Shown piece by piece: positions 24,001-27,000 of a DNA stretch of 64,000 nt (positions are counted from its first letter, which is position 1; each line of letters begins with the position of its first letter). Where the stretch lies: positions 196,452 to 260,451 of the forward strand of contig JBBSVO010000006.1 in assembly GCA_038046805.1 (NCBI GenBank). Reading direction: 5' to 3'. Position numbers: made by a program. The stretch is from Candidatus Micrarchaeota archaeon (GTDB lineage: Archaea > Micrarchaeota > Micrarchaeia > Anstonellales > Bilamarchaeaceae).

Positions 24001-27000
24001 CATATATTTCAAGCGCATTGCCTGTGCTATCTTCTCCTTCACCACCGTGTTTTTGAAGGTTCGGAAGTGCATACATATAAACCGCATAACCTGCGGCAAG
24101 GAAAACGATAATCCCTAAAACCACCAGCAAAATATTTTTTACATCTGTCATAAGATAACCTCTGAACATTGGCTTTTTATATTTCTCATCTGTGCTTAAA
24201 AAGTTATTGCAGGGGACAGGATTTTCAATTACCACGGGAGTATCACGCCTACGTTTTTCTTTTGGCGTGTCAGGAACGACCGACAAAACGACGCTTCGTT
24301 TTGTGGTCCATAAAACGTTACGACGTTTTATCGGACGCATCGTTCCTGAGCATGTTCAAGAACGAAATGTCGTTCTTGACATGAAACCCTCAGACCTTTT
24401 CTTTTTTAAAAGAAAAGGGGTATGGGTTTGAACCTGTGAAGACGCTAGGTCATCAGATTTCCTATCCCGCATTCGGGAAAAGAACAAACGAGATCTTGAG
24501 TCTGACGCGTTTGACCGTTGCGAAACCAGTTTCCAGTTGCCTGTTTCCAGTTCCCAAAACGCGAAACTGAAAACCCTAGACAGAAAACTGACTTCTCCGC
24601 CACCCCTGCGCATTATATTTGCTTTTTGCCGCACCACATTTTAAAACCTTGTTAGTCTATCATCTACTCATGGCAGAGCCACTATGGTTCATTGAATACC
24701 CAGTATCATTCATCTCAATTTTCGTAGCCGTATTTTTCACACTGATTTATCTGAAGAATTTCAATAGGATGGAACACAAGTCAAAGCAGGCGCATGGCTG
24801 GGAACCAAAAATAACAATTCTCATTCCTGCTTACAATGAGGAGAATTCTATAGCTGCATGTTTAGATTCAGTTCTGGCATCAGATTATCCTCGGGAAAAG
24901 ATGGAAATACTTGTTCTGGATGACGGTTCTACTGATAAGACTGCAGAGATTGCCAAGCGTTATTCAACACATGGGGTAATCGTCTGCTCAAAAGAAAACA
25001 CTGGAAAAGCAGACTCTCTTAATTTCGGAATAAAAAAATCAACAGGAGAAATAATTGCAACGCTTGATGCGGATTCGTTTATAAGTCCATATTCCATACG
25101 CAGAATGCTTCCATTGTTTGAAGATGAGACTGTTGGAGCGGTTGCTTCTGCAGTTAAAGTGAAAAAAGCAAAAAACCTATTGGAGGAGATCCAGCGCATA
25201 GAATATCTTTTTGCATTATTTTCCCGCAAGGTTGTCAGCTTTATCGAATCCGTGCAGGTAACCCCCGGACCGTTTTCCATGTTCCGCAGATGGATTTTTG
25301 ACAAGGTCGGCGATTTTGATACAAAGAGCCTTGTTGAAGATCAGGAAATAGCACTGAGAATCCAATCTCATCATTACAAAATACGCTGCTCTCTCGATGC
25401 CGACGTTTTCACCGAAATCCCACGCACGTTCCTTGACTTGATGAAACAGCGCACCAGATGGCAACGCGGAGGGTTCTGGAACTCATTAAAATATCTTAAA
25501 ATGATTAATCCAAAATACGGGGATCTGGGAATGATTATTCTTCCGTTCGGTGTGTTTGGATATCTGATGCTTGTCATCTTCCTTGTGCTTGCGGTGTACT
25601 ATATGTTTTATGGTTCTCCCTATCAGGAAGCGCTTAGCTATGATTCCTATCTGCTGGCATTCCGCGAGCTTCATGTTTTCGGAATTCTTATGATAGGCCT
25701 TGCGTTCCTGTGGCTGTTCTATGGGATGGGGAGGCTTTTCCGCGAGCAGGAGCTGCATCCAGTGTCAATCTTTTTATATATCATACTATATCCTATGTTG
25801 ATAACGTTATTTTGGTTCTCCGCAGCGTATAAAGAGCTGCGCGGAGAGGGTTTCTCGTGGTAGGTGTTGAAGTCGTAAAGGTGAATCCATGGAAGACGAT
25901 GCAAAACTGGAAAGAAAATCTCCGAATATTTCTCTCTATGTAATAGCGTTGGCTATTACGATCCTGATCTTCTTCACTGGAATCTATCTTGGTAGGGTTG
26001 TTGATAATTCGGTTCAACAGGGTATTGGCACCGATGTCGCATCACTTATTGAGCGAACAAATTCAATGGAGCTTTTGTTCCTTTTGGATAATTCTTCTGA
26101 TTTTTGCCCGGTATTCAAAGATGAATTATTGAAGATAGATTCGGATACAGAAAAACTCGGATACAAACTTGCGTATATCGAAGATATAAAAGGTGCTGGT
26201 GCGTCTGACCCAGACCTAAAGAAAAAATATTTCGTTCTTGAAACCGAGGCCTACCTTCTTTCCAAGAGAATCGCGGAAAGTTGCGGGTCGAGTTACGCTA
26301 ATTTCGACCTTGCGCTTTATTTCTATTCTAACAAAAAGGGCGCCTGTTTTGATTGTGATGCACAGGGAAAGGCCATTCTTGATGCGAAAAAAGAGCTTAA
26401 CCGACCATTTAAGGTTTATTCTTTTGACGGGGATCTCGGAAGCACGGTTGCGGATGCGCTGAAAACAAGACATGGTGTGACGGTCTATCCTTCACTTGTA
26501 GTCAACGGGGTTCTTTATGAGGGTTTTGTTTCAAAGGAGGAATTGCTCGGACTTCTTTCCAAAAATGCAAAAGGTGATGAAGAAATGAAACTTACAGGGG
26601 AAAAACTTTTTGCACCGTTTGGCGGGCAAACCTGCGTTTATTGGGAGAATTATGTCATAGAAGAAGGTCGCGTTTCTCAAAGTAAAAATCCATTCTATGC
26701 GGTAATTGACGGAAAGAAAATCGAGCTCGGTCTTCCACCCGCGCGCATTTTTATGAAACCGACATCTGAAAACGAAACTGTAAAAGAGTGGTGCCTCAGT
26801 CCGGATGCGGTTTATCTTGTGGAAAAGGTAACTGAAACTGCGTCTCTTCCGGATTGGGACGAAGAAAAGACTGCGTATTACATTTCTGACGCAAAATACT
26901 CTTCAGAAGAAAGGAAAAAATATTCGACGCCTGCGAGCAAATGGACATACTAATATTTTGTCAGAATCGAAGCTTGTCAATGGAAATGTTTAAATATCCG

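Follow-up and report, generated by a model that had tools for sequence, protein, structure and literature searches.

Recurring non-coding elements in the tRNA introns of a Micrarchaeota genome with nearly every tRNA gene disrupted

Fujishima et al. reportedly described tRNA intron transposition in Thermoproteales in 2010, where introns that differ in position and in host tRNA gene are related to each other. In ARMAN-2 (Ca. Micrarchaeum acidiphilum), which has an epsilon2 EndA, 56% of tRNA genes are disrupted, with shares of up to 87% elsewhere, and the burden was tied to the type of the enzyme (PMC3239211). The share is 92-95% in three complete Asgard genomes (PMC11291895). A preprint on Asgard archaea gives 97-98%, with 2.2 insertions per gene and up to five; three arrival routes for tRNA introns were tested there and none was found (10.64898/2026.10.13.758758). 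The main text of the preprint is without Micrarchaeota, DPANN or ARMAN, while its reference panel could include DPANN genomes (10.64898/2026.10.13.758758). In a review of 2014, introns are 11-129 nt long, with medians of 12-25 (PMC4090602), and reviews as of 2014 name Thermofilum pendens as the only archaeon with permuted tRNAs (PMC3218864, PMC3978253). A literature search that covered few subscription papers found no publication on tRNA intron families in Micrarchaeota.

We analyzed the genome of the groundwater organism Candidatus Micrarchaeota archaeon (GCA_038046805.1, G000 below), in which 40 of 41 tRNA genes are disrupted. Coordinates without a prefix are positions in a window, the whole stretch of 64,000 nt that was analyzed; C-prefixed coordinates refer to contigs of G000. 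G001 is a relative of the same genus, and other G numbers are further relatives. The genome-wide survey's note had called this share of disrupted genes the highest known, which is not so in view of the 97-98% and 2.2 insertions per gene of the Asgard preprint. The share and the predicted splicing are of a known kind. The main and new finding is that element families recur in the introns; the note, whose census and intron sites hold up, had not remarked on them.

The genome shares with ARMAN-2 the phylum, a full-length EndA match to PDB 4FZ2, relaxed hBH introns at 59/60 and the presence of tRNA-Ile(UAU), but 40/41 genes are disrupted here against 56% there, and the 59/60 example from ARMAN-2 is 13 nt long (PMC3239211). 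As in Asgard archaea, the share is near 100%, several introns occur per gene, and D-arm introns are missed by standard tools (PMC11291895; 10.64898/2026.10.13.758758). Asgard introns, however, are short (median 22-23 nt) and almost never cross-isotype, whereas the introns described here have a median of 51 nt and form clear families (10.64898/2026.10.13.758758).

For the tRNA census, 120 compact tRNAs from relatives (45 anticodons) were aligned to both strands of the genome; introns were a free state of the alignment, and BHB motifs did not enter the score. The reversed genome served as control: its maximum score was 172.6, and 0 of the 15 top control matches listed was called by ARAGORN. The first pass gave 36 genes with scores of 198-331. 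After masking, four further genes were found: Val(GAC) (189), Pro(CGG) (184), Asp (175) and Phe (168), the last of which did not rise above the control before the correct 5' exon had been located upstream. For five difficult genes, the starting intervals were set by hand before BHB refinement.

The census comprises 40 collinear genes with 39 anticodons. Introns are present in 39 of them, tRNA-Ser(GCT) being the only exception: 13 genes carry one, 20 carry two and six carry three. The 71 introns of the collinear genes are 14-205 nt long (median 51, six above 129 nt), about 1.8 per gene, and lie in the D region (25), the anticodon loop (26), the T region (18) and other places (2). Gene spans are 84-402 nt. 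This search, which was independent of the survey and did without a BHB term, thus reproduced what the note had reported: 40 collinear genes, 39 of them disrupted, plus one permuted gene; 39 different anticodons; three recurrent sites; and a maximum of three introns per gene. The note's length range, median, longest gene and counts for the anticodon loop (26) and T site (18) also stand. Its figures for the introns (about 72) and the D site (24 genes) compare with 71 and 25 here, and the shortest gene is corrected to 84 nt from 85.

Standard tools recover few of these genes. RF00005 matched six times in the genome. With the -i option, ARAGORN called 14 genes, several of them wrongly, and without it two. 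ARAGORN with lowered thresholds was rejected as a tRNA finder since its calls were mostly false. When the introns were removed in silico at BHB-refined junctions, 38/40 products were called by ARAGORN with a normal anticodon, and the remaining two (Thr TGT and Trp) were called correctly with plain alignment junctions. With one or the other of the two junction choices, 40/40 products were thus called, in keeping with a restored normal cloverleaf and 7-nt anticodon loop, and relatives that lack single introns agree with this. A BHB score of at least 14 was reached by 47/71 introns, against 14.2 expected from shuffled introns; 13/71 fit no BHB class and 12/71 fit only weakly.

Genes for Asn, His, Glu(CUC), Arg(CCG) and Ser(GGA) were again missing, as none exceeded the control in the spliced alignment of the whole genome, and Asn and His did not exceed it as half genes either. 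The gene that adjoins those for Asn and Arg(CCG) in one relative is located at the end of contig C1 in G000. RNase P RNA was not found by a search of G000. The absence of these isotypes and of RNase P RNA is compatible with an incomplete bin. The collinear genes are best explained as the working, single-copy tRNA genes of the organism. tRNA-Ile(UAU) is present at C7:97785-97938 and a third CAU gene was not detected, which agrees with the description of ARMAN-2. An RNA run, X16, which consists of low-depth contigs and shares 0.13 of the words, contained no splice joints, and one of its contigs reads through the Ile gene in unspliced form; this speaks neither for nor against splicing. DNA runs from two further studies covered the region of the tRNA-Leu(CAA) gene in pieces.

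tRNA-Leu(CAA) illustrates how these genes are built. Neither ARAGORN nor Rfam gave a tRNA match in the 64-kb window, and the Rfam scan of the window had no match. The 402-nt gene occupies 24208..24609 (-) and consists of four exons, whose 84-nt spliced product was called Leu(CAA) by ARAGORN; the whole gene has a much better fold than its shuffles (z -9.9). Exon 1 (24595..24609, -; positions 1-15) is the same in G001 and G005. It is followed by a 77-nt D-loop intron at 15/16 (24518..24594, -) with a relaxed HBh' motif (H 4/4, h' 6), which carries two opposed arrays of degenerate 7-nt units. This intron is 48 nt long in G001 and absent in G005, where the junction was confirmed. Exon 2 (24495..24517, -), defined by refinement and relatives, holds the 3' part of the D-arm to position 37 with the anticodon CAA. 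The anticodon-loop intron at 37/38 (24459..24494, -; 36 nt) has a BHB with one H mismatch (H 3/4, h' 6, h 6), and a related intron is found at 37/38 in Leu(CAA) of G001 and G005. Exon 3 (24427..24458, -), also defined by refinement and relatives, begins with position 38 and runs through the long variable arm to position 59. The T-loop intron at 59/60 (24222..24426, -; 205 nt) has a relaxed hBH motif (H 4/4, h 5) and is cleanly absent from Leu(CAA) of G001, where the junction was confirmed. Exon 4 (24208..24221, -), placed by refinement, extends from position 60 to the discriminator, and CCA is not encoded. Intron lengths of 79, 36 and 205 nt had been given for this gene; the last two were found again and the first is 77 nt.

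Dissection of the 205-nt intron revealed a composite of an element that we call F2 and two nested hairpin modules. The 45-nt head of F2 (24382..24426, -) and its tail (24222-24269, -) align with the T-loop intron of tRNA-Cys, and between them lies a 112-nt insert (24270..24381, -). The outer 56-nt double-hairpin module of this insert has 12 BLAST loci in the genome, one of them in the Lys CTT intron, and the second 56-nt double-hairpin module, which is nested in the first (24280..24335, -), has 10. Two more tRNA genes lie in the window. tRNA-Thr(UGU) (19350..19580, -) has a D-loop intron at about 19486-19563 and an anticodon intron at about 19386-19465. tRNA-Ile(GAU) (36559..36736, -) has a 19-nt anticodon intron (36595-36613) and an 84-nt D-loop intron (36638-36721), which is a copy of a second element, F1.

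When introns were compared across the genome, 19/73 fell into families that cross isotypes at 70% identity or more, whereas 0 did so in 10 shuffles. F1, about 80 nt long, was found in 18 introns of G000 from 12 isotypes (10 D, 4 anticodon and 4 T), and F2 in five introns, all in the T-loop. Arrays of 7-nt units were carried by 20 introns. Among introns of at least 60 nt, 31/35 contained F1, F2 or 7-mer arrays; 34/73 introns, mostly short (median 37 nt), contained none of the modules. F1 has a sequence core and two folds that are conserved at 60-82% identity with compensatory changes. The two folds are mutually exclusive, and both covary, with covariation scores reached by 0 and 1 of 500 shuffles, a measure that related sequences can inflate. 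D-loop copies of F1 have common 3' tails among genes that share the D-stem. The genome contains 110 period-7 arrays, whereas periods of 5, 6, 8, 9 and 10 give 0-11, and 21 of the 110 lie inside introns. By a rough coding mask, 34/110 arrays overlap long ORFs.

Families that cross isotypes and positions above a shuffled null are also the mark of the transposed introns of Thermoproteales. The element described here is, however, about 80 nt long, more diverged, nested with other modules, and present in rRNA, RNase P RNA and spacers as well. At 80% identity, only 2/73 introns (2.7%) were in cross-isotype families, far from the 28% that the Asgard preprint, with a different aligner, gives for Thermoproteales introns (10.64898/2026.10.13.758758), so most copies would be old or fast-diverging.

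F1 is not confined to tRNA genes. G000 has 22 copies, of which 18 are in tRNA genes and four outside, and several F2 copies also lie outside. Two intergenic F1 copies are in the window, upstream of the gene for RNA 3'-terminal phosphate cyclase, RtcA (21788..22900, +; Pfam RTC E 3e-79): one at 21482..21541 (+; nhmmer E 1.4e-5) and one at 21578..21695 (+), which has a double-hairpin insert (nhmmer E 0.003 for the 5' part). Neither is present in G001. Intergenic F2 copies are flanked by direct repeats of 18-38 nt. Two intergenic F2 sites are empty in G001, which has a single copy of the 18-23-nt sequence that flanks both sides in G000. Orthologous tRNA genes of G000 and G001 differ by one intron site in 10 of 14 pairs, a set that is biased because the pairs were selected partly via F1 matches.

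In tRNA-Val(TAC) and tRNA-Val(GAC) of G000 (C2:39064, C6:88245), the discriminator base is immediately followed by a composite F2, and G001 has a shorter form of the element at Val(TAC). A spacer at C3:77776-78170 contains three near-copies of a T-loop-like sequence of about 22 nt, parted by F1, 7-mer arrays and a third element, F3, which is the T-loop intron of tRNA-Lys(CTT) in G001. No orthologue of this F1/F3 locus was found in 5 genomes searched, and no clean empty site was found for an F2 tandem on C3. SRP RNA (C2:59777-60217, -), for which the bacterial large SRP model was the best match, has a leader that contains both a 7-mer array and a copy of F1. 23S rRNA (C2:120116-123887, -) matches in pieces with long gaps, suggesting introns, and 16S rRNA appears to be split between contig ends (end of C9, start of C4). 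A DGR-like cassette at C11:463-2590 (-) (L142) lies beside tRNA-Gly(CCC); its reverse transcriptase (RT) gene is split at a G-run, one stretch rich in Asn codons resembles a template, and a candidate target gene lies upstream.

The distribution of F1 in other genomes was examined with a covariance model trained on G000; the family genomes searched are kin and not independent samples. The model matched in 8/31 relatives and in 0/12 from other families. Within the family, F1 was found in 25/66 genomes, and in 0/15 of those with at least 35 RF00005 matches, a count used as a proxy for lightly interrupted tRNA genes. Among 50 F1 loci from other genomes, 44 were in complete tRNA genes, two in 16S and one in 23S rRNA, one followed a tRNA 5' exon at a contig end, and two were elsewhere. 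A pattern scan of metagenomes gave 55 matches, 53 of them distinct. The solver placed 38 of these in complete tRNAs, all in sense and none in antisense orientation; by eye, five more were assigned to tRNA and three to 16S, and the others were in RNase P RNA (three) or had no host assigned (four). The same pattern, searched as one exact pattern, had 0 matches in viral contigs.

All F1 copies placed in tRNA or rRNA genes are in sense orientation. One 16S rRNA site is occupied in L227, L231, L297, L341 and L351, with several possible BHB registers in the two loci tested, and a 23S insertion in L232 contains F1 pieces. In RNase P RNA, the P12 arm is an antisense F1 at L298, L319 and L339, three loci that may represent one event. 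P12 is unlikely to be the donor of F1, because G033 has F1 together with a short RNase P RNA. In G080, three F1 matches overlap in tandem at C4:77084-77263. In the elongator tRNA-Met of G001 (L196, on its contig C106), 18 nt of exon sequence are duplicated on the two sides of a hairpin insert; this was the only tRNA gene in which a duplication was seen.

The permuted gene mentioned in the survey's note was identified as tRNA-Ala(GGC), at C4:76042-76300 (-), with a score of 211 against 161 for the next match. Positions 60-73 come first, followed by a linker of 16-17 nt and positions 1-59, with two introns of 83 nt (F1) and 88 nt. The outer flanks form a BHB (H 4/4, h 5/5) in both G000 and G001. 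With its 3' piece upstream, its 59/60 junction and no collinear copy, the gene fits a type IV permuted tRNA, and it is conserved in G001, where the head of an F1-type T-loop intron follows the 5' part. The search for other permuted genes in the genome, with junctions at 37/38, in the D-loop or in the variable arm, gave nothing convincing. The gene is collinear with a T-loop intron in G002, G005, G006 and G010, and intron-less in G003 and G013. These comparisons suggest that a collinear gene whose T-loop held an intron gave rise to the permuted gene within this genus. The permuted tRNA-iMet and tRNA-Tyr of T. pendens and the type IV genes of Cyanidioschyzon merolae likewise have a 59/60 junction with a BHB and introns in the 5' part (PMC3218864, PMC3978253). 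In contrast to these, the gene described here is for tRNA-Ala(GGC), has two long introns, lacks an encoded CCA, belongs to a DPANN host, and has collinear relatives whose T-loop intron points to the likely ancestral state.

The splicing genes listed in the note are indeed present. EndA matches PDB 4FZ2, which we take to be the EndA of ARMAN-2, over its full length (E 1e-137), its relatives are recorded as Ca. Micrarchaeota and three of them as Ca. Bilamarchaeaceae, and genes for RtcB and archease were found. By analogy with ARMAN-2, the three-unit EndA would cleave the precursors at BHB motifs, whether strict or relaxed, and RtcB together with archease would ligate the exons. EndA was matched with E 7e-81 or better in 30/31 genomes searched, including intron-poor ones. 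RF00005 matches in 66 family genomes ranged from 2 to 44 (median 22), and 5/66 family relatives had six or fewer, so G000 is not alone in the family. Since genomes with the same type of EndA have between 2 and 44 recognisable tRNAs, the enzyme permits the intron load and does not drive it. The ARMAN-2 paper, by contrast, ties the burden to the type of enzyme (PMC3239211).

How did the introns spread? We lean, with modest confidence, towards the reading that small non-coding elements were copied at the DNA level and then filtered by splicing. The load would derive from F1 and F2, from F3, which is rarer, and from 56-nt double hairpins and arrays of degenerate 7-nt units; copies of these would be placed in the loops of structured-RNA genes, inside one another and in spacers. 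Copying would most likely take place on DNA, at hairpin-loop sites, through a trans-acting enzyme of the host or of a helper. Copies that land in a tRNA loop would survive where they and the exon together make a motif that EndA can cleave at the ends of the copy, so that the enzyme, with its broad specificity, would be a filter and not the cause. A DNA step is favoured by the antisense F1 in P12 and by the direct repeats at intergenic copies. Against this reading, no direct-repeat signal was found at tRNA introns (3.55 vs 3.60 +/- 0.12), few introns fall into cross-isotype families at 80% identity, 34/73 carry none of the modules, and 25/71 have a weak BHB or none. By counts made by hand, neither RT (8/25 F1-positive vs 14/41 F1-negative genomes) nor TnpA (5/25 vs 14/41) showed an association that would mark it as the mobiliser.

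MITEs and REP-like non-autonomous elements are short, non-coding, hairpin-rich, multi-copy and nested, as are F1 and F2. F1 and F2 differ from them in that no fixed-length target duplication or tracking transposase accompanies them and most copies are predicted spliced introns. F1 and F2 do not fit MITEs or non-autonomous IS200-IS605 elements, as there was no fixed target duplication or target motif with a cognate transposase, and the 18-38-nt repeats occur between genes and not in tRNAs.

An RNA step, on the other hand, is favoured by the sense-only copies in tRNA and rRNA and by the strong preference for RNA genes. Excised introns might enter the cut loops of further stable RNAs through reverse splicing by EndA and RtcB (and RtcA); RT would then make DNA copies, which would be recombined into the genome. 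Such a route would explain why every tRNA and rRNA host examined carries the sense strand, and why 18/22 F1 copies are in stable-RNA genes, whose exons amount to 3,018 bp against about 170 kb of non-coding DNA. The F2 copies that follow the discriminator base without a gap in two Val genes would also suit it, an RT gene is present in G000, and variable repeats of 18-38 nt resemble the products of target-primed reverse transcription. Nevertheless, we consider it unlikely: F1 is antisense in P12, the presence of RT does not follow that of F1, and the RT of G000 looks DGR-like and is split over two frames at the G-run.

The introns could also have multiplied without any mobile element, by gene conversion between similar tRNA exons, with growth by local slippage and template switching that would make the 7-mer arrays and hairpins too. 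The common 3' tails of D-loop F1 copies where the D-stem is the same agree with this, fold-back copying could yield the covariation of both exclusive F1 folds, and the 110 period-7 arrays are scattered over the genome. Yet one element occurs at D, anticodon, variable-arm and T sites, in rRNA, RNase P RNA and spacers without common exon homology, and intergenic sites are found both with and without it. This explanation is improbable overall and already weak for F1 and F2. Slightly less probable still is that F1 was kept and spread as a functional excised RNA, or that introns shield tRNA genes from integrating elements: although the F1 core and its two folds are conserved with compensatory changes, F1 was not found in 41/66 family genomes, its sites turn over within the genus, the window has no Rfam match, and a DGR-like element adjoins the two-intron tRNA-Gly(CCC).

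F1 and F2 might even be mobile elements of a new, protein-free class that target the loops in structured-RNA genes and make themselves harmless as EndA introns, moving by neither IS transposition nor group I/II homing. The two F1 folds might then be a switch between a spliceable and a mobile form, and the elements might be the source of the non-canonical tRNA introns and permuted tRNA genes of the lineage. We put this forward only tentatively, with more doubt than conviction.

How DNA enters tRNA genes as introns is an open question, for which the recurring elements give a handle. The same sequence is found as a tRNA intron, an rRNA insertion, an arm of RNase P RNA and an insertion between genes, and sister species provide sites both with and without it. 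This makes the route accessible to phylogenetic trees, reads from populations and splicing assays in vitro. Genomes like this one are undercounted by quality filters that rely on tRNA counts. For the family, the comparison indicates that a broad EndA does not set the intron load, and it offers a permuted tRNA for which relatives show the likely ancestral, collinear form.
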